DNA of 64,000 nucleotides from Pseudovirgaria hyperparasitica (lineage: Eukaryota). The stretch lies in NCBI GenBank assembly GCA_010093815.1, contig ML996567.1; one strand, 5' to 3'. The position numbers were made by a program, and so were the translations under genes. Every line of letters begins with the position of its first letter. Position 1 is the stretch's first letter. Under the pieces are notes generated by a model, which saw only the letters and a list, made by a program, of their open reading frames with translations, searched no databases and had not been told where the DNA came from. Below, in pieces: positions 3,001 through 32,579 of the stretch.

Positions 3001-4438
3001 CATGGCTGTCGCTGTGAGTACCAAGCCTGTTGATGTGATCCACGTACTAGATCAAGCAACTGCTGGCGGAACCATTGCAGTGGCTCTCATCTTCATGAAA
3101 ACCGAGAACGAAGCGGTCGCGCGAAAGGTCGATATTCCGGACACTATTCCTCAATTTGACTACGTACGACCTGATATCTTTCTTCTTCGGACACTGGCCA
3201 AACATGTGATTATGTGGAGGCAGATACAACCTGAGCAGCGCTGGGTAGTGAAGAACCTACCTCACGAGTACCAGTCACAGTACAGTCTTCGAACGATCAA
3301 AAAGCTCCGAAGTGAGCACATGCCATTCTACAATATTGTAGCTGGGCTATTGTGGGCAGTTGGTCTCAAGCATGCCGGAACTGGTGACGTTGTGGCGCGG
3401 GACTTTCTACTTAGGTACCTTGACCAATTTATACGTATTTGTCGACTTCCTGCTCTCCGCTACGACGCCAAACTGGCCAGAAACACGGTGCGCAACTGTC
3501 AAGACTTAGTAGCTTTGTCGGTGGCGACGGTGATGGCAGGAACAGGAGACTTGGAGGTTTTCCGGCGACTGCGAGCTCTTCACGGTCGCGTTGGCCCAGA
3601 CACTCCGTATGGGTCTCATCTTGCAGCGCATTTCGCACTTGGTGCCCTCTTCATGGCAGGCGGAACATATACCTTTGGCACGTCAAACCTCGCCATCGCC
3701 TCGCTCATCTGCGCATTCTACCCGCTCTTCCCTGTGGATGTGCTGGACAACAAGGCCCATCTCCAGGCCTTCCGCCACTTCTGGGTCCTAGCCGCCGAAC
3801 CTCGTTGTGTTGTTGTGCGCGACGTCGACACTCACAGGCTTATCACTCTTCCGGTCGTTGCACGCATGAAGAATGGTACAGAACGAGAGTACTCGACGCC
3901 TTGCCTTTTGCCCGAGCTGGATAGCATCGCCTCTCTACGTACCGTAAGTATGGATTACTGGCAGGTCACACTTGACTTTGTGCACAATTCAAAGCATCTG
4001 TCTTCGTTTAGAAAGAACCAGACTATCCGCGTGCGTCGTCGGCCAGCACAGGAATCACACAGCTCAGTCTTCAGCTCGACATTAGCAGCGCTGAACGAAT
4101 CACAAATGTGGAGCCATTCAGGGGTGTTGCTCAAGTGGAGCTGGATCTTTGACCTGCATGCCTTTGCGGAGTTTGAGAAGGCTGATATCGGCTTGATCTT
4201 ACCGCCGGATGGCAATAGTAGTGTGCATACCGAGGCACATGGTACGGTTCTCGATGATCGCCTTGTTCTGAATGCAGCGGCTAGGTCCTGGAATCGGACA
4301 GATTTGCAGAATGTGAAGGCTTTGTTTGCTTGGGCGCAGAATGCACCGCAAGGAAAGCAGTTGAAATGGTTGGGCATGGAGGTTGTGGAGAGGTTGCGAG
4401 GGGTGATTATGGAGCGGAGTAAACATATGCGCGCCTAA
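1..4438 (+). CDS. APC1: Anaphase-promoting complex subunit 1 (BimE/Cut4 homologue), 5'-truncated by window edge; introns 50-112, 1410-1486, 1957-2005
   Basis: Three ORFs join in frame across GT..CTRAC/GCTGAT..AG introns. PC-repeat region motifs seen: WAFFHAGV, HAGLLLGLGLNGHL, YRLAAGFALGLINLG, HLQAFRHFWVLAAEPR. Confidence 0.93.
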
Positions 4439-4937: not shown

Positions 4938-5752
4938 ATGGGACGCCCCGAGTTCGACCGAAAGACTGCATACATCAAGAAAGGTGAAGTCTGGGTACTC
5001 AACTCCACCTGCTGCATGTCGATATACCGCTGACTTCAACCCAGTTCGACGATGGCCGCGAAGAAGCGCTCGTCTCGTACATCAAATCTCACCCACACGC
5101 CGACTCCTTCCAGAACAAACCACACATCATCCTCTCCGTCATCGACGAGTTTGCCCGCACCAAGGACTTCATGATGACTGTTGGCCAGTACAAGGGCGCC
5201 GTCGTCACCGATCTCATCGCAAAGGAGCGCCCGCAAACGATTGTGGAGATGGGTGGGTACACGGGGTATTCTGCGCTGCTGTTTGGGAGTGCGTTGAGAG
5301 ATGCTTGGAACGGAGTGGAGGGTGCCAAGCCACGGTACTACAGTCTCGAGATGAGTGAGAAGTTCGCGGGCATCATCAGAGAGTTGGTCAAGCTGGCCGG
5401 GCTGGACCATGTTGTCACTGTGGTCACGGGCAAGGCGGAGGATGGGCTTCGCGAGTTGAGGGAGGACTTCAAGCTCGAGACGGCAGATATGTTCTTTATC
5501 GATCACTACAAGCCGGCGTATGTGGGTGATCTACAACGTGCGGAGGATTTGGGCTTGGTACGTAAGGGCACGTGGGTTGTGGCGGATAATGTGGTGTTGC
5601 CTGGGGCGCCGGGCTATCTGGAGTATGTGCGTGGAACGGCAAAGGGTGAGGGCATTAGGAAGCATGTTTATGAGAGCAGATTGGAGGAGAGCTGGGAACC
5701 GACCGGCGAGGAGGATGGACTTGAGGTTTCGAAGTGTATCGAGGTGAGATGA
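4938..5752 (+). CDS. Catechol O-methyltransferase family SAM-dependent methyltransferase; intron 4995-5044
   Basis: Spliced N-terminus MGRPEFDRKTAYIKKGEVW|FDDGREEAL. SAM motif VEMGGYTGYSA plus FFIDHYKPAY and VVADNV. Confidence 0.88.
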
Positions 5753-6120
5753 ATTCGACTGGGGTACGGGCTCATTCACTTATGAAGGCGTGTCCCTTTC
5801 TACTACTATGCTATGAGCTGTAGACTTATGATATCAGATGGATGCCAGTCTAGGTCCCGACGAGTATGAGGCCACTCTAGACCTAGGCTATCACGGCTCT
5901 GAGAACAAACTGGTATACCAATTCGAGAACACTGAATCTTCTGAAAGGAAACGAAATGGTAAAGACAAGTTAGACCACGTTCTTGTAGTTGATTATGGAG
6001 GTATACTCAATGAAATGGGTGAACGGCTACCATCTCAGTACGCTATTCGTATTGTACGCAGGTCACAACAAGGGAAATCCAGTCCGGGTATCCTACACTG
6101 CATTATCTTATCCTTGCTCT

Positions 6121-25365: not shown

Positions 25366-25459
25366 GTTTATGTATGCAATTGAGGAGCAGTGAAATAAGA
25401 AGAAGTTTCTTTCGTTAAGGTAGGGTATAAGAATATAAGGTACAGGTCTATAGAAGTTG

Positions 25460-25466
25460 TGAGTCA
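25460..25466. promoter_or_regulatory. Gcn4/CpcA-type site TGAGTCA in the short divergent STR2/UTP22 promoter
   Basis: Exact consensus 95 bp upstream of an amino-acid biosynthesis gene. Confidence 0.5.
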
Positions 25467-25643
25467 ATCATGCTGTCCGGATTCGATTTTCAAACGCCGA
25501 GATATTTCGTCAACTCAGAGCTTTGCTCCGAGCTCGGCGGGGGCCTGCGCCACAGCCGACTTCTTTTCCGGCTTGTTGTGGCGCGCCCGCGACAAAATTT
25601 CGTGTCAGTTGCAAGTCGCTACAACACCACGAGCGAATTCGTG

Positions 25644-28600
25644 ATGGCTGTTCCTACTACAAAACGACGGAAATTGAGCCACAGCCCTACTCCAGAGAGC
25701 GAAGATGTATCATTCTCGCCAGCATCGCCGCCAAATGCTCATGCGTCTGGGAGCTCGCAGGACAGCGACTTTGATGACGAAGAGAGTCCAGACAACGCGC
25801 GTGATGACTTTGGCATGAGCGAGGAAGAAAGCAGTGAAGAGAAGTCTGCAGACGAGACAGACAACACCGATCTTGAAGACGATGCTCAGACATCTGCGAC
25901 GCGAACAGACGGACACAAAGACCAAGCCTCCAAAGCGCAAAAGAGTCGTGAGGGGAAGAGGAAGCTTATGCATAACCCGTTGTTGGATGGAGGAGTCTAC
26001 AATGGCGAGATATACAAATCAAACATCTTCAAACTGCAATTGGACCGACTGCTACGAGATTCCAGGCAGAAGTCAAGCGCAAGGGTGGAATCGATAGACA
26101 AGGCACTGCGTATGGTAAAACAGATTATCGAGAACGCTTCGGATACTCCGCCGGTCTCTATCATCGATGCAGAAAAGGAATTGAAGAGGAGCCATGGAGT
26201 CGCCATACCATTTCCCAGTCCTCGGCCGCCCAAGGACGCAAAATATAAGTTGGAATTCAGGAAGCCTTCTCACATCAACGTTATCGGTAGCTATCCCGCT
26301 CAACTGGCCACCCAGAAGAATGGGCAGATCTCAGTCGATCTCATGATATCGATGCCAACTGCGCTCTTTCAAGACAAGGACTTTCTGAACTATCGCTATT
26401 TCTACAAGAGAGCGTACTACCTTGCTTGCGTCGCAGCGATCCTGAAGGGCGACAAGACTCATAAGCTACAAGTATCTTATGAGATGCTCCATGGCAATCA
26501 GTTGCTGCCAGTTGTAATAGTACACACCAATGAGACATCTGCACCCGCTGGGTTTTGCATTCGAATACTCCCATCGATTGCGGAATCCGTTTTCTCGGCG
26601 GAGAAGACGCAGCCCGACAGGAATTGTGTTCGACCGCAGCCTGGTCTTGATTCAGAGAAGCATAAGCTTGAACCTACACCATTCTATAATGCATCTCTTC
26701 GCATAGATAGCTCGATGACACATTATCTCAAGCTGATTCACCGAGCGTCCACGATTTGCGATGGATTCAGGGATGCCTGTAGCCTTGGGAGATTGTGGTT
26801 ACAGCAACGCAATTTGAGCTCCGATATACACAGCATTGGCTTTGGCAACTTTGAATGGGCTGCTATTGTGGCTACGCTATTGCTGACAGAGAAGTCCCCA
26901 AGTGGCGTGTCACTGTCCCCAGGGTATAGCAGTTACCAGTTATTCAAGGCAACGCTTCAATTTCTGTCGTCACGAGACATCAGCCGAAACCCATTTCTGA
27001 CATCGAGACTGGAATGTAAGTTCCCGAAAAATGGAACTCCCGTTTTCTTTGACAGCCAAGCTGGCATCAACCTATTGTTCCAGATGTCACCGTGGTCTTA
27101 TAAGACATTACGGGACGAAGCGGCGCTCACAGTGAAAATGCTTGGAGACAACATTCACGACAATTTCGAAGCAACTTTCAAAATCAAGGTCGACCCGCTA
27201 CTACTGAAGCACGACATAGTCATGAATGTACCTGTCGGTGCCCTGTCAAAGGCTGTCAATAGCAGCAGTCTAGATCCTCTCCCTCATCTATTCATCCACA
27301 AAGTCTATAGTCTGCTTGTAAGGGGATTGGGTGACCGTGTGTCATCTATTGCGATATATCCGCCCCACCCTTCACCATGGACGATCGACTCCGCGCGAGT
27401 CCAACAATATGTGAACACGACACTTGATGTTGGGTTCTCTGTACATCCAGTGCACATTGCAAGGACAATAGATCGTGGGCCATCCGCTGAAGACAAGCAA
27501 GATGCTGCAGCGTTTCGAAAATTCTGGGGCGAAAAGGCCGAGCTTAGAAGATTCAAAGATGGTAGCATCGTTGAGACACTCGAATGGTCAGCCAAGCCTG
27601 AAAGTGGTACGATTCTTGAGCAAATCGTGTTGCACATCCTTGAGAGACATGTTGGCAAGACTGTGGCAACGGAAGTGAAGTTCTCTGGGGAGAATTTTGG
27701 TAAGCTTCTGCCAGGTAGTGCGCCGCACCCCAGTATTGCTCCATTCAAGCCCATCATGACAGCCTTTTCGACACTAGAACGTGATCTGCGAGGCCTAGAT
27801 GAGCTCCCCCTGCAATTCAGACATGTGCTCGCGGCGTCGTCGGGTCTCAGCTATAGTTCCGTGATGGCACCGCTGTCTAAAGAGCACGACGTAGCCGCGC
27901 AGCCACTGGATGTGATTATAGAGTTTGAAGGGTCTGGAAGGTGGCCTGACGAAATTCCAGCCATCCAGAAGACGAAGATTGCCTTTCTTCTGAAAATTGG
28001 TGAGCTGTTTGAGCAGAAAGCCGATGGGACGACGACACGTCTTGGACTGGATAATCAAGAGAACAACATGCTAAACCAAGCATATCTGGACATAATCTAC
28101 TCGACGTCTGCTGCATTCCGCCTCCGTATCCGTCTCGATCGAGAACAAGCCACCCTGGAACGAGTCAAGGCCAACAAACTGACGGACGCAAAACAACGTG
28201 AGATATACTCTCAAGCATTAGCAGTATACAAGCGCCATTCGTTGGTCAGTCCGTCGCACGTGCAGGCACTCCAGACTCTAAGCACACGTTATCCAGCCCT
28301 GTCGCCATCCATCAGACTCGTCAAGCGGTGGTTTGCGGCCCACTTGCTCACATCTCACATTCCTGAGACTGTGATAGAGCTGCTTGTTGTGCGAGCATTT
28401 CTCCAGCCGTTTCCATGGGACACGCCTTCGAGTGTATCCACTGGCTTCGTGCGAACGCTGTACTTCCTTTCCCGCTGGGACTGGCGCGAAGATCCACTCA
28501 TCGTAGACCTCTCTGGAGACATGACCAGCGATGAATTCGAGGCAATCGAAGCAGACTTCAAATCGCTTAGAGCCAAGGACCCATCGATGAATAAGGTAGT

Positions 28601-29210
28601 GTTGTTTGCTGCTTCGAGTGTGGATCGAGCTGGCACCACGTGGACCGATCAAGGGAGCCCTCCCCGAGTGGCAGCGTCACGCATGACAGCTCTTGCGAAA
28701 GCAGCCACGCAAGCCGTTCTAGACCCACTCGTGAAGCTCAACGTGAAGTCTCTCTTCACCTCGTCTCTCAAGGACTACGACTTTGTCATCCACCTACACG
28801 CCAAATACACGCGCGCAGGCCGGGAAAAGAGCGTGACTCTCGCCAACGGCCAATTCAAGAATCTCCAGCTGCAGGCCGCCAGTCTGCAAAACACCAAGAA
28901 CATTGGCTACGACCCTGTCGCCGCGTATGTGGAAGATCTCAAATCCCTCTACGGGAGCTGTGCCGTTTTCTTCCACGACAACAGCAATGGTGGGAGGGTC
29001 ATTGCGGGTCTCTGGAACCCGGCTGTGGTGGGCAGAAAACACTGGCGAGCCATGATGCTCTACTCTACCATCCCGAAGATACCGAGGGATGACGAGAATG
29101 GGATGAGTTCGTCTGTCAACGTGGAGGCTATATTGAGTGAGATGGCAAGGCTGGGTGGGGATATGGTTAGTAAGATAGAGCAGCAGAAGACCTTTGCTGG
29201 CGTTGAGTAG
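25644..29210 (+). CDS. UTP22: Nrap protein / U3 snoRNA-associated protein 22, single exon (an in-frame upstream ATG at 25470 also exists)
   Basis: Acidic N-terminus. Motifs YKSNIFKLQ, INVIGSY, KDFLNYRYFYKRAYY, FWGEKAELRRFKDGSI, FEGSGRWPD, IAGLWNP. Confidence 0.95.
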   Translation: MAVPTTKRRKLSHSPTPESEDVSFSPASPPNAHASGSSQDSDFDDEESPDNARDDFGMSEEESSEEKSADETDNTDLEDDAQTSATRTDGHKDQASKAQKSREGKRKLMHNPLLDGGVYNGEIYKSNIFKLQLDRLLRDSRQKSSARVESIDKALRMVKQIIENASDTPPVSIIDAEKELKRSHGVAIPFPSPRPPKDAKYKLEFRKPSHINVIGSYPAQLATQKNGQISVDLMISMPTALFQDKDFLNYRYFYKRAYYLACVAAILKGDKTHKLQVSYEMLHGNQLLPVVIVHTNETSAPAGFCIRILPSIAESVFSAEKTQPDRNCVRPQPGLDSEKHKLEPTPFYNASLRIDSSMTHYLKLIHRASTICDGFRDACSLGRLWLQQRNLSSDIHSIGFGNFEWAAIVATLLLTEKSPSGVSLSPGYSSYQLFKATLQFLSSRDISRNPFLTSRLECKFPKNGTPVFFDSQAGINLLFQMSPWSYKTLRDEAALTVKMLGDNIHDNFEATFKIKVDPLLLKHDIVMNVPVGALSKAVNSSSLDPLPHLFIHKVYSLLVRGLGDRVSSIAIYPPHPSPWTIDSARVQQYVNTTLDVGFSVHPVHIARTIDRGPSAEDKQDAAAFRKFWGEKAELRRFKDGSIVETLEWSAKPESGTILEQIVLHILERHVGKTVATEVKFSGENFGKLLPGSAPHPSIAPFKPIMTAFSTLERDLRGLDELPLQFRHVLAASSGLSYSSVMAPLSKEHDVAAQPLDVIIEFEGSGRWPDEIPAIQKTKIAFLLKIGELFEQKADGTTTRLGLDNQENNMLNQAYLDIIYSTSAAFRLRIRLDREQATLERVKANKLTDAKQREIYSQALAVYKRHSLVSPSHVQALQTLSTRYPALSPSIRLVKRWFAAHLLTSHIPETVIELLVVRAFLQPFPWDTPSSVSTGFVRTLYFLSRWDWREDPLIVDLSGDMTSDEFEAIEADFKSLRAKDPSMNKVVLFAASSVDRAGTTWTDQGSPPRVAASRMTALAKAATQAVLDPLVKLNVKSLFTSSLKDYDFVIHLHAKYTRAGREKSVTLANGQFKNLQLQAASLQNTKNIGYDPVAAYVEDLKSLYGSCAVFFHDNSNGGRVIAGLWNPAVVGRKHWRAMMLYSTIPKIPRDDENGMSSSVNVEAILSEMARLGGDMVSKIEQQKTFAGVE

Positions 29211-29909
29211 GTAGGGCAATACGTATGCTAAGACACAGCGCTGTTGCCGTTCACTGGTCTGCTTCCATGTCAAGTGCCCTGTATAGAGCAGAGCTGCGAT
29301 GAGGTGGACGAGCCAGACGGAGTTCGTTCGAGAGTTTGGGTGACTATTGTCTAGATATCTATTCCCAGGGCAGCGCGTATTTTCGTGGAATCATATAAAT
29401 CATTCCCCAGCCTTAAGCCTTAAATGGTGGAGCTGCGCAAGCTAACCGGATGTGTTCTAGACGAGATATGGCGTTACTTCGGATGGATTGGGTATATGTT
29501 GGTATCCATTGCAGTTGTCGATTCGATGAATCTCTCCATCACATCCCATCAACTATAATGACAATATATGTGAATGATATCTTCAAAGTTATATCACTGA
29601 CGAGTATATAGCCGTCATGTGCTCTGTTTAGCGTCTCTTACGACTAAGGCATAGCAAAAATCCCAACGCGCATGATTAGCCTTATTCACCTCTCTAACAG
29701 AAGGCATCCAATATACACACACACATACATGCAAACCCAGCCTACTGACACCGTATCCGTACAAAGCGAACCATCTCACCGTATGCCTACCACCACTGCC
29801 ATAAGTCCAACACCAACTAACCCTACCTCACAGCTGCTAACGTGATTTACATCGGCGTCAATCATACCTACTATCCAATCACTCCTACAAACACCCCCAA
29901 AAATCCCCA

Positions 29910-30365
29910 ATGGCAACAAAAGCAGCACCCCAAACCTACCGCTTCCTCACCACAGCGCAGGTAAACCAGCTCCACCGCGTGGCCCTGCACCCGCGCAGCA
30001 CCAAGCCCACCCAGCCCACAATGCTGGCATCCGCCGTCGCGTCGCCCGTCAACGTGCACCACTACGAGCGCGACAAGACCGTCTTCCAGCTAGCTGCCGT
30101 GCTGGCGGAGAAGCTGATGTTGAACCATGCGTTTCAGGACGGGAATAAGCGCACGGCGCTGCTGGCGGCGGATATGTTTCTGCGGGTGAATGGGGTGAGG
30201 TTGGGGTTAGGTGTGGATAGGGATGGGGAGGGGGTGTATGGGTTGAGTAGGGCGCAGGTGGATGTTACGACGAGGCGGTGGGGGGTGGATGATTTGGCGC
30301 GGTATTATGGGGGGATTGCGAGGCCTGTTGGCGGGGAGAAGGAGGGGGAGGAGAAGGAGGAGTAG
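29910..30365 (+). CDS. Fic/Doc (death-on-curing) family protein, 151 aa, intronless CDS
   Basis: Doc-type Fido motif HAFQDGNKRTA (30126-30158) followed by FLRVNG. Upstream LH..LASAV.SP pattern is typical of small Doc proteins. Confidence 0.9.
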   Translation: MATKAAPQTYRFLTTAQVNQLHRVALHPRSTKPTQPTMLASAVASPVNVHHYERDKTVFQLAAVLAEKLMLNHAFQDGNKRTALLAADMFLRVNGVRLGLGVDRDGEGVYGLSRAQVDVTTRRWGVDDLARYYGGIARPVGGEKEGEEKEE

Positions 30366-30448
30366 GAGGAGTTAGTAGAAGACACGTCGTGAAGTGTTGA
30401 GTGGAGTGGAGTGAAGTGGGCATACAGATGCTCTTTCGGTCGCGCGTG

Positions 30449-31240
30449 CTACATATCCTTGAGCTGCTCGAGGCATGGTCCGAGTTCGCGGATGGAGTCG
30501 CGGAGATGGCGTGTGAAGGTCTCTGTACAAACTATTAGCGAATCTCTCGTATAAAGCATTCATTCTCCCCTCAGTAAATACGCACCGTCTTCCGTCCCCG
30601 TGAGCACAAAGGTATGCGATCGCCCATACATATACAACGCCGCCGGACTCGTGCTCGTCGCATTCGCATTCCTCTGTCGCGGCAAGTCGCGCGGCAGGAT
30701 AAGTTGTGGCAGCGCCGACGAAGCTATTTCTGAAATCTCAGAAACTGTCCATATATGAAGAGATGCTTCGCGAGATCATACAACCCGTATGCCGTGTCCC
30801 CCCAAAAGAAGTACAAGAAAAAAAAGGAAAAATCCGTACATACCATGCGCAAAATGCCGCGTATCATGGTAGAACACCAGGGGCAGAACACCAACATCAA
30901 CATCAACATCAACATCAGTATCCAAACCATCCGCCTGGCCCCCAGCAAGCGGGAAAACGGCATTCCGAAATGCGAACCCGATGTCTGACGGGACGATGGC
31001 GAGGGCCTGATGCGGATCGCCCATGAAGACGTCTACGCCTGTGCGCACTGGGGTTCCCTGGCGCAGCGTGAGGAATTGGGCGTGTTGTTCCTGTTCCTGT
31101 TCCTGTTGTTGCTGATGTTGGCCCTCATAGGAATGAGTAGACGTCCATCGTCGCGTCAATATAGATATACGCGCATGATGTCCACGAGCACGAGCAGCGA
31201 GATGGCTTCGCGCGAGACAGCAGCGTGTGGGGACGAGCAT
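30449..31240 (-). CDS. Hypothetical protein, 3 exons (31240-30844, 30723-30586, 30522-30449), about 202 aa, with possible mitochondrial presequence
   Basis: Introns GTATGT..TAG and GTGCGT..GCTAAT..CAG both keep the frame. Reads ...LPLVFYHDTRHFAH|ASSALPQLILPRDLPRQ...VLTGTED|ETFTRHLRDSIRELGPCLEQLKDM*. An alternative in-frame acceptor lies 6 nt upstream of exon 2. Confidence 0.72.
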
Positions 31241-32579
31241 TGTCGTCGATGATGAATCAGTCAAAGAGCGGACGGAATGACTCGATGAATGGATAACCAC
31301 AGCCGCTGATGAAGCATCGGGGCCGAAGCACAAAGAATGAATGAATGAATGGATGAATGAATTCCTGGATGGACAAAAGATTGAATCCATGATACAATCC
31401 CCGACACGACGTCGCAGATCAAACAAGTCCCCTCGCCCTCACCCGCCACGCCTTGTGCCTGATCTGCGCCCCCCTCTCTCTCCTCTCCTCACCCTGCCTT
31501 GCCGGCTTGCTTTACCCCCCTGGATCTGCACACCAGTAAGACACTATAAATAGCCCTCGCATTCTCAGGTTGACCGGTTTAGTGAGAGCGAATATGTAGC
31601 CATGCGGTGCGGTGCGGATTGTGATGCGGTGTAATTTGCGGCGCTCAGCATGCGACGCGGTGGTGATTCGTCCAAGGGTCTGTCTGTCTGTCTGTCTGGG
31701 GTAGAAGTATTAGTTAGACGCCTTGTTAGATAGGATAGGATCAGCCCGTCAACAATAAAGAGACCGTCAAAACTTGAAAAGAGAGCATAAAGGCGGATGT
31801 GTGATGGTATGCGTGGCATGGCATGGCACGCCGAGTGAATGCACACACACACACCACACCCCCCTTCTGCCTGGATCAACATCAAACAGTAGTCAGAGCA
31901 TCGAGTTTTGGATGCGCGCGGCCCCAAGAAGCCTTGCGACGCGGTGGAGGAGGATGCGACAGTTCTTATACGGTCTTGGCGTGTGTCAGGTTGAAGGCGG
32001 GAAGTTTGATGATGATGATGATTGGGGAGAAAAAGGCAAAAATATGAGGGCGGCGGAAAAAACACCGGAAAGAGGGGAGTGATAAAAATGTATATATGTG
32101 TGCGACGCGCGGGTTTGGTGATATTTTCTTCTTTGGTGAATTTTTCTTCACGATTTTTTTTCCTGGTGTGACTATTCTTGTATTGTCTACTACTAATATT
32201 ATATCCATCCATATTCTGAAGGGCGTTCTGGGCGCGCGCTCTCGGCTTACAGGCTTGCTTGTATTGACGACTAGAAGCTGAAGTGAAAGAGAAGGACCTC
32301 CCCTCCGATAATATCTCACACGGGCTTTAACGCAGGCTGAGCATCACTGAACGCTGGATCGAGTCGCTCGTTTACATCCTACGAAACCCAGAATTATCCT
32401 GGTCTTTGTTCGCGCCGCAAGACACCGCCGCTCGCTCGCTCACTCATTATTTACCCGCCATACACAGCCGCGCGCGCGTGAGCGGATCGTCAGTCTTACT
32501 ATACGCCCCTGTGCCACAGCGCATCCCCAATCATTGTTCCCACTACCCATATATCAACCAGCCAGCCAGCCAGCCAGCC

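Follow-up and report, generated by a model that had tools for sequence, protein, structure and literature searches.

Doc-type Fic-fold genes of filamentous ascomycetes and their neighbouring partner family: a candidate two-gene module

Toxin–antitoxin modules are usually regarded as prokaryotic. The locus considered here, which resembles one of them in part, lies at positions 29910–31240 of a 64 kb stretch of DNA (the whole of which is called the window) from Pseudovirgaria hyperparasitica, a fungus that a taxonomy look-up places in the Dothideomycetes. It holds a Doc-type Fic-fold gene on the plus strand (29910–30365) and a convergent gene of 202 amino acids (aa) on the minus strand (31240–30449), and this partner gene and its protein are both referred to below as X. 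The closest described system is Phd–Doc of phage P1 (structures 3K33, 3DD7 and 3KH2), with which the locus shares a Doc-family protein, the HxFxDGNKR motif with its kinase-type Lys, and a small adjacent partner gene. The partner itself is different: X is unrelated to Phd/YefM, with no Pfam or NCBIfam match, and is predicted to be a folded α/β domain with a basic leader and no evident DNA-binding part. Unlike the co-transcribed operon of P1, with its antitoxin gene upstream, the fungal genes are separate, intron-bearing eukaryotic units whose order and orientation vary. Phd neutralises Doc, whereas for X neutralisation is a proposal.

Class I Fic toxins of the VbhT–VbhA type have a separate small inhibitory antitoxin encoded next door, which carries the helix motif (S/T)xxxE(G/N). 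The fungal locus is alike in placing a Fic-fold enzyme beside the gene of a small protein, but the enzyme here is of the Doc type and not an AMPylating Fic. Fungi also have poison–antidote elements of their own, such as Spok and wtf, in which poison and antidote are both encoded from one gene (PMC12693581, PMC5478263). As in those elements, a harmful product and its antidote would be inherited together in the Doc–X pair, and X is patchily distributed and multi-copy in some genomes; in contrast, Spok and wtf make both products from a single gene, and their sequences are unrelated to Doc and X.

Doc-like sequences of fungi have been recorded before. Those of Aspergillus fumigatus and Coccidioides immitis figure in a 2008 listing under ‘Doc bad poisons’ (PMC2446400), the Fido paper of 2009 mentioned fic/doc sequences in ‘a few fungi’ (PMC2686095), and the Doc gene TERG_02161 of Trichophyton rubrum appears in a transcriptome table as down-regulated with terbinafine (PMC6963840). 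In the first two reports these eukaryotic Doc-like genes are solitary, with no partner described, whereas a conserved neighbour family is found here. The full-text literature searched, which did not extend to subscription journals and supplements, yielded no account of the X family or of any partner for fungal Docs. What appears to be new is that a gene of the Doc toxin type is combined with a partner family that is unrelated and specific to eukaryotes.

The reading that we favour, and to which we give a probability of roughly one half, is that Doc and X form a conserved, functionally coupled two-gene module of the Pezizomycotina, in which X restrains or counteracts Doc at the protein level. 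The pair would be kept linked by selection, its two products depending on each other, and X would restrain the Doc kinase either by binding it or by undoing or shielding the modification that Doc makes, as a functional counterpart of the Phd antitoxin that has no kinship to Phd. By analogy with P1 Doc, the fungal enzyme would phosphorylate a translation elongation factor. With a partner family that stands beside Doc in two fungal classes or more, while orientation and surroundings change, what had been a curiosity of annotation becomes a two-gene system open to experiment. X is then a candidate for a eukaryotic protein that regulates a Fic-fold kinase or acts as its antidote, and a toxin of bacterial translation may prove to be connected with the control of translation, mitochondrial or cytosolic, in fungi. 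Several of the genera that have the family matter in medicine and agriculture, so that any part it plays in the response to stress or drugs may be of practical interest.

The Doc-type gene and its linkage to X

The Doc gene runs from an ATG at 29910 to a TAG at 30363–30365 in one coding exon and encodes 151 aa. By sequence it is a member of the Doc family, since it passes both curated cutoffs, scoring 51.9 bits against Pfam PF02661 (Fic/DOC; cutoff 24, E=1.4e-13) and 54.4 bits against NCBIfam TIGR01550 DOC_P1 (cutoff 38.65), and a profile of 86 fungal Docs, a protein found in many genera of Pezizomycotina, matches the three P1 Doc structures named above and also 9VZC. The catalytic motif HAFQDGNKR (residues H73–R81, nucleotides (nt) 30126–30152) carries the Lys seen in Doc at the position that is Gly in Fic AMPylases. 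The pattern H-x-[FY]-x-[DN]-[AGR]-N-K-R was found in 85 of the 86 aligned fungal Docs, and H73, G78, N79, K80 and R81 are invariant in the alignment. It is this Lys that gives Doc its kinase activity on Thr382 of EF-Tu, unlike the AMPylating Fic enzymes (PMC7180214). The fungal protein can be described as a Fic-fold kinase that descends from bacteria and retains its catalytic motif intact, its kinase activity being a prediction from sequence, and because the motif is near-invariant the enzyme is probably active and in need of restraint. Upstream of Doc, none of the four open reading frames (ORFs) matches any Pfam family at E<=0.1.

The evidence that carries the favoured reading is the position of the two genes relative to each other. 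A metagenome scan with a four-sequence alignment of X retrieved five loci, which were then searched by tblastn with 55 Doc proteins. In three of the five, all fetched by X alone, a Doc gene lies within 1 kb of X. In L002 the two are in tandem on the same strand, X (4216 to ~4855) preceding Doc (5464–5892) with a gap of ~610 bp; L003 has the convergent orientation of the window, with X at 245–856 and the C-terminus of Doc on the opposite strand at 1353–1219, where it is cut by the contig end, leaving ~360 bp between the ends; and in L005 the genes are divergent, X reading from 4576 and Doc, on the opposite strand, from 4223, with ~350 bp between the starts. The other two contigs are too short to show a neighbour, L001 ending 11 bp after X and L004 ~370 bp after it.

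A second set of observations comes from five assemblies with positional identifiers, where consecutive identifiers were read as adjacency and the Doc paralogues considered were those among the matches listed. Within this scope X is adjacent to Doc in three of the five assemblies and in four of seven X genes. In Emergomyces pasteurianus X is AJ78_03523 (OJD16311.1) and Doc is AJ78_03524 (OJD16312.1); in Microsporum canis X is McanMca71_004701 and Doc McanMca71_004700; and Penicillium malachiteum has two such pairs, KAJ5715408.1/KAJ5715409.1 and KAJ5731811.1/KAJ5731812.1. A single gene model of Trichophyton interdigitale, KAF3901318.1 (255 aa), contains both a Doc domain (Pfam Fic, 6.3e-12) and an X domain, while the models of other strains from that 90% cluster consist of Doc alone (127–136 aa); the merged model therefore points to a tandem Doc→X arrangement. 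Weaker hints are an ENA Doc fragment and an X fragment, each on a 3918-bp contig, and a Doc and an X of Cadophora, each on a contig of 141,246 bp, the agreement in both cases being one of size only. A preliminary description of this DNA, made from its sequence, had proposed as its own test that homologues of X should occur beside Doc genes in other fungi, and the metagenome loci, the assemblies and the Trichophyton model all speak for it; its remark that no Phd-like ORF lies upstream of Doc also agrees with the Pfam search of the four ORFs there.

Four arrangements are represented among these loci, namely convergent, divergent and tandem either way. Their surroundings differ as well: when the 64-kb window was compared with the five metagenome loci by tblastx, the only matches were at 29916–30317 (Doc) and 30662–31060 (X), and the flanking gene is Nrap in the window and eIF2A in L005. 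Direct adjacency is found in Dothideomycetes and Eurotiomycetes, and also on contigs whose nearest named relatives are hypocrealean. These data bear on the possibility that the adjacency is synteny, inherited or hitch-hiking from an early ancestor of the Pezizomycotina by chance or through chromatin context, without any interaction of the products. Such an explanation would sit comfortably with the two of five assemblies in which X and Doc are not adjacent among the matches listed, and with the correlation of distance matrices between Doc and X (r=0.69 in a Mantel test of 8 pairs, with 65 of 5000 permutations as high), which shared species history explains by itself; being expected from common descent, this correlation adds little. 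However, four arrangements, unrelated flanks with no gene common to the window and any of the five loci, a spread over at least two classes and two diverged pairs in one genome, both adjacent, make inherited synteny hard to credit. In a genome of ~10,000 genes, moreover, a given gene would neighbour a given family by chance with a probability of ~1e-3 or less. We consider synteny without interaction to be quite improbable.

Since arrangements and flanks vary, a shared promoter or an antisense overlap can be ruled out as the conserved feature, and what is conserved is the linkage itself. This is the signature expected where parting two genes does harm, as it would with a poison and its antidote, and it is the conserved linkage, together with the probable activity of Doc, that leads us to favour X as a restrainer of Doc.

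One of the linked loci is unusual in its sequences. The Doc of L002 has DRNKR in place of DGNKR and its X lacks LPRQ, reading NLGHAKGK, so that this may be a co-diverged or a decaying pair; upstream, at 3270–4115 of the same contig, is an ORF with a weak likeness to MuDR transposases (E=0.016).

The X family, its predicted fold and its leader

X belongs to an unnamed family whose members are ~165 aa long. A phmmer search with the window protein against 1.84 billion representatives returned 88 proteins at E<=1e-3, and for 24 the E value was <=1e-10. Most matches are 140–180 aa long and align to query residues ~53–202; eight long ones (412–2809 aa), aligned to query residues 92–142 only, were put aside as presumed low-complexity matches of the DV-repeat kind. 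A profile search for X gave 96 proteins. A reading of X as an orphan, which came from a word-index search in which exon 1 matched only itself, was overturned by the phmmer family. All members with a named source are Pezizomycotina and fall into four classes, each confirmed for one genus by taxonomy look-up: Eurotiomycetes (Penicillium, Aspergillus, Emergomyces, Blastomyces, Microsporum, Trichophyton, Coccidioides and Histoplasma), Dothideomycetes (Massariosphaeria, Zopfia, Elsinoe and Phyllosticta), Leotiomycetes (Cadophora, Bisporella and Scytalidium) and Sordariomycetes (Epichloe, Tolypocladium, Hirsutella, Ophiocordyceps and Pyricularia).

The conserved motifs of the family are PL.F.HD(S/T).HF, YPRL.IP..LPRQ, TSPATL, LDGT.D and a C-terminal LKDM. 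The introns are at common positions in the window, L002 and L005, intron 1 after HF.H and intron 2 after DGTxD, and this conservation argues that X has long been a gene of fungi rather than having come recently from bacteria. Some Penicillium genomes have several copies, with four clusters named Penicillium salamii and at least two pairs in P. malachiteum. One family member, P0158 (298 aa), joins the domain of Aim19, a mitochondrial inner-membrane protein (Pfam Aim19, E=5e-4), to an X domain; it probably arose by merging two genes that are neighbours in its genome, and merged models alone are therefore weak evidence of function.

Searches for known relatives gave little. Fusion artefacts aside, neither the window X nor any of 25 other members matched a Pfam family; all six members tried were without an NCBIfam or PADLOC match; the ESM Atlas held no match for the window X (P0005) or for P0215; and the best PDB match of X by sequence had an E of 0.72. 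AlphaFold models were made from a 76-sequence alignment with either the window protein or the Emergomyces protein placed first, with a mean predicted local distance difference test score (pLDDT) of 81.0 for the window and 86.7 for Emergomyces and predicted template modelling scores (pTM) of 0.70 and 0.78, the domain being mostly above 90 in pLDDT. The leaders are of low confidence in both models, in the window protein over residues 1–36. Both models predict a β-sheet core, one inner helix and a long C-terminal helix, and portray X as an α/β domain of ~135 residues behind a short basic leader. Foldseek comparison of the two models with the PDB gave best E values of 0.073 and 0.075, both to the flavin mononucleotide (FMN)-binding protein 2IML with template modelling (TM) scores of 0.20–0.27, and VIA-align against 48,161 chains gave best Z scores of 4.0 and 3.8, none reaching 5 and all below the background stated for the tool. 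As modelled, X would be a protein domain with no detectable solved relative, which does not in itself prove a new fold.

A folded domain of this kind would also suit an account in which X is the substrate, adaptor or downstream effector of Doc, so that the two make up a kinase–client signalling unit without toxin–antidote logic; X could, for instance, be a protein that Doc phosphorylates, or one that leads Doc to its compartment or target. The same linkage of X and Doc applies to it, and three Ser/Thr residues of X, S158, T161 and T176, are near-invariant, each in at least 90% of the 76 sequences, and stand on conserved motifs. The predicted folded domain of 135 residues likewise fits a client, whereas the toxin-binding tails of classical antitoxins are mostly disordered, and the differing predicted locations of X and Doc suit a client better than an inhibitor. 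Yet kinases and their substrates seldom stay adjacent in eukaryotic genomes, and tight linkage that does not depend on orientation is classically typical of two genes one of which does harm on its own. The identity to the window proteins is 25–39% for X and 44–54% for Doc, and this faster divergence of X is what one would sooner expect of an antidote than of a conserved client. On balance we take a client or adaptor role to be unlikely.

The N-terminus of X raises the question of mitochondria. Leaders in the family have a median length of 30 aa with six R/K, 61 of 75 have at most one D/E, and a conserved AR(Y/F)(F/L)H closes them where the domain begins. In the window the leader comprises 38 aa (31240–31127, minus strand); the preliminary description had drawn attention to its seven Arg, its lack of Asp and Glu and a cleavage-like RRW-TS, and the sequence agrees on each point, with RRW-TS at residues 30–34 and a presequence-like appearance overall. 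Cleavable presequences follow a rule of Arg at −2 or −3, with R-x-(F/Y/L)-(S/A/H) around the site. The motif R-x-(F/Y/L)-(H/S/A/Y/F) is present in 63 of 76 X proteins versus 6 of 84 Docs, and leader and motif together are compatible with a cleavable presequence. Charge is a weak discriminator, as 46 of 84 Docs have at least three R/K and no D/E in their first 20 residues, and the hydrophobic moment does not separate the two proteins (z of 0.54 for X and 0.38 for Doc). The case for mitochondria consists of the basic leader and the R-x-aromatic motif; Doc, which has no leader, weighs against it, as does the uncertain start codon of X in this species. If the leader of X is a true presequence, mitochondrial EF-Tu, a bacterial-type factor, would be an attractive candidate target, though to name it is speculation.

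A more ambitious version of the favoured reading can be built on this, in which filamentous ascomycetes have domesticated a bacterial Doc kinase with an intron-bearing antidote of their own and of new fold, giving a native eukaryotic toxin–antidote module that perhaps acts on mitochondrial translation. The mitochondrial EF-Tu would be phosphorylated by Doc and then protected or restored by X, which its leader would carry into the organelle; the linked pair would be kept by selection against separating poison and antidote, and would have been amplified in some genomes. If true, it would be a genuine chromosomal toxin–antidote module native to eukaryotes, although we hold this fuller scheme to be tentative and rather doubtful.

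Several points weigh against a module in which X restrains Doc. Not every X is beside a Doc: two X genes of Tolypocladium ophioglossoides, TOPH_07252 and TOPH_03133, are apart from TOPH_07132, the only Doc among the matches listed, and in Penicillium canescens 336 tags separate X (N7499_003359) from Doc (N7499_003695), again among the matches listed; unlisted paralogues may explain the non-adjacent X genes of both. Fusarium, Diaporthe and Xylaria have many Docs and no X among the matches listed, so that many Docs may lack X. X shows no likeness to Phd/YefM or to any other known antitoxin family in Pfam, NCBIfam or PADLOC, and the Fic-inhibitory motif (S/T)xxxE(G/N) occurs in only 6 of 76 members, in scattered alignment columns and at no conserved position. 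Were X imported into mitochondria while the leaderless Doc is not, a simple binding antidote would be harder to picture. Finally, the toxicity of Doc, and its binding and rescue by X, are predictions from linkage and sequence.

Gene structure and transcripts in the window

The preliminary description had recovered X as a ‘hidden’ minus-strand gene of about 202 aa with two canonical introns. The gene structure holds, being backed by the public model and by spliced contigs; the gene was not hidden, as the three-exon, 202-aa product is identical to the publicly annotated hypothetical protein EJ05DRAFT_497297 of Pseudovirgaria hyperparasitica. Exon 1 (31240–30844, minus strand, as are all parts of X) encodes the leader (residues 1–38), a Q/E-rich stretch (39–52), the first half of the conserved domain and a DVDVDV loop, as seen in the sequence and the public model. 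Intron 1 (30843–30724) is 120 nt long and reads GTATGT..TAG, with GT..AG ends. Exon 2 (30723–30586) carries the motifs LP(R/Q)L.IP.DLPRQ, TSPA(T/A)L and L(D/T)GT.D, which were assigned from the sequence and the family alignment. Intron 2 (30585–30523), of 63 nt, reads GTGCGT..CAG and likewise has GT..AG ends. Exon 3 (30522–30449) encodes the end of the long C-terminal helix (...LEQLKDM) followed by a TAG stop, according to the sequence, the contigs and the AlphaFold model.

The contigs come from two public runs (X1 and X2) of one sample in one study, whose kind is not on record. In both runs they align to the window without extra letters and skip 30523–30585, 30724–30843 and 29781–29833 exactly, so that the predicted introns of X are spliced out at the joints 30522→30586 and 30723→30844. 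We take them to be transcript assemblies, on the ground that three canonical introns on two strands are removed. The third of these introns is a 53-nt GT..AG intron in the 5' untranslated region (UTR) of Doc (29781–29833, plus strand; joint 29780→29834 in the contigs of both runs), which was absent from the gene model of the preliminary description. An in-frame TAA at 29838–29840, just past its acceptor in the sequence, implies that Doc has no N-terminal extension.

The two stops face each other across a gap of 83 bp (30366–30448), the distance given in the preliminary description, which had deduced from it that the 3' UTRs probably overlap and had offered antisense overlap, beside control at the protein level, as a possible mechanism. 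The contigs extend to at least 31500 and are unbroken over 30333–30423, including the gap between the stops, and one of them spans both genes without a break, with introns of both strands. In the window, therefore, the Doc and X transcripts overlap or abut, and that part of the proposal is retained. The closeness of the stops and the contig with introns of both strands are also what would speak for control at the RNA level, in which the 3' overlap of convergent transcripts lets antisense pairing tune Doc or X. However, only two of the five loci of known orientation (the window and L003) are convergent, L002 and the Trichophyton pair being tandem and L005 divergent, and the distance of ~360 bp between the coding ends in L003 tells against it as well. 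The contig of run X2 is 5597 nt long but extends only 1465 nt rightwards from 29740, and its remainder probably takes in the upstream Nrap gene as well, hinting at overlapping or read-through transcripts. For this reason merged contigs seem ordinary in this compact genome, and we give the overlap of Doc and X little weight. Control by antisense pairing is accordingly very improbable, and as a conserved mechanism antisense or 3' UTR overlap is contradicted by the varying orientation, whereas a module of Doc and its partner, the other part of what had been suggested, is a fair reading of the linkage and splicing.

The Nrap gene lies directly upstream of Doc on the plus strand (25431–29210) and encodes, in a single frame of 1259 aa, a nucleolar protein of the UTP22/Nrap type with Pfam Nrap domains 1–6.

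At the other end of the locus, an alternative ATG (31390–31388, minus strand) stands in frame 50 codons upstream of the annotated start of X, within an open frame of 30776–31438. Because it is in frame and covered by contigs, the start codon (31240 or 31390) and with it the N-terminus of X are uncertain. An out-of-frame upstream ORF begins at 31317 (31315–31317, minus strand), also within the stretch covered by contigs.

The window X is atypical for its family in having an N-terminal part of 55 residues with a Q/E-rich insert. Two coding microsatellites are found in it that other members are without: QQQQEQEQEQ at residues 42–52 (~31085–31117), between leader and domain, and DTDVDVDVDV at residues 105–117 (nt 30890–30928), in a loop of low confidence. 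The window Doc has a peculiarity of its own, for in an alignment of Docs from pairs many of the fungal proteins share a C-terminal tail of the form EYR..A.EY, where the window protein instead has the acidic EKEGEEKEE.

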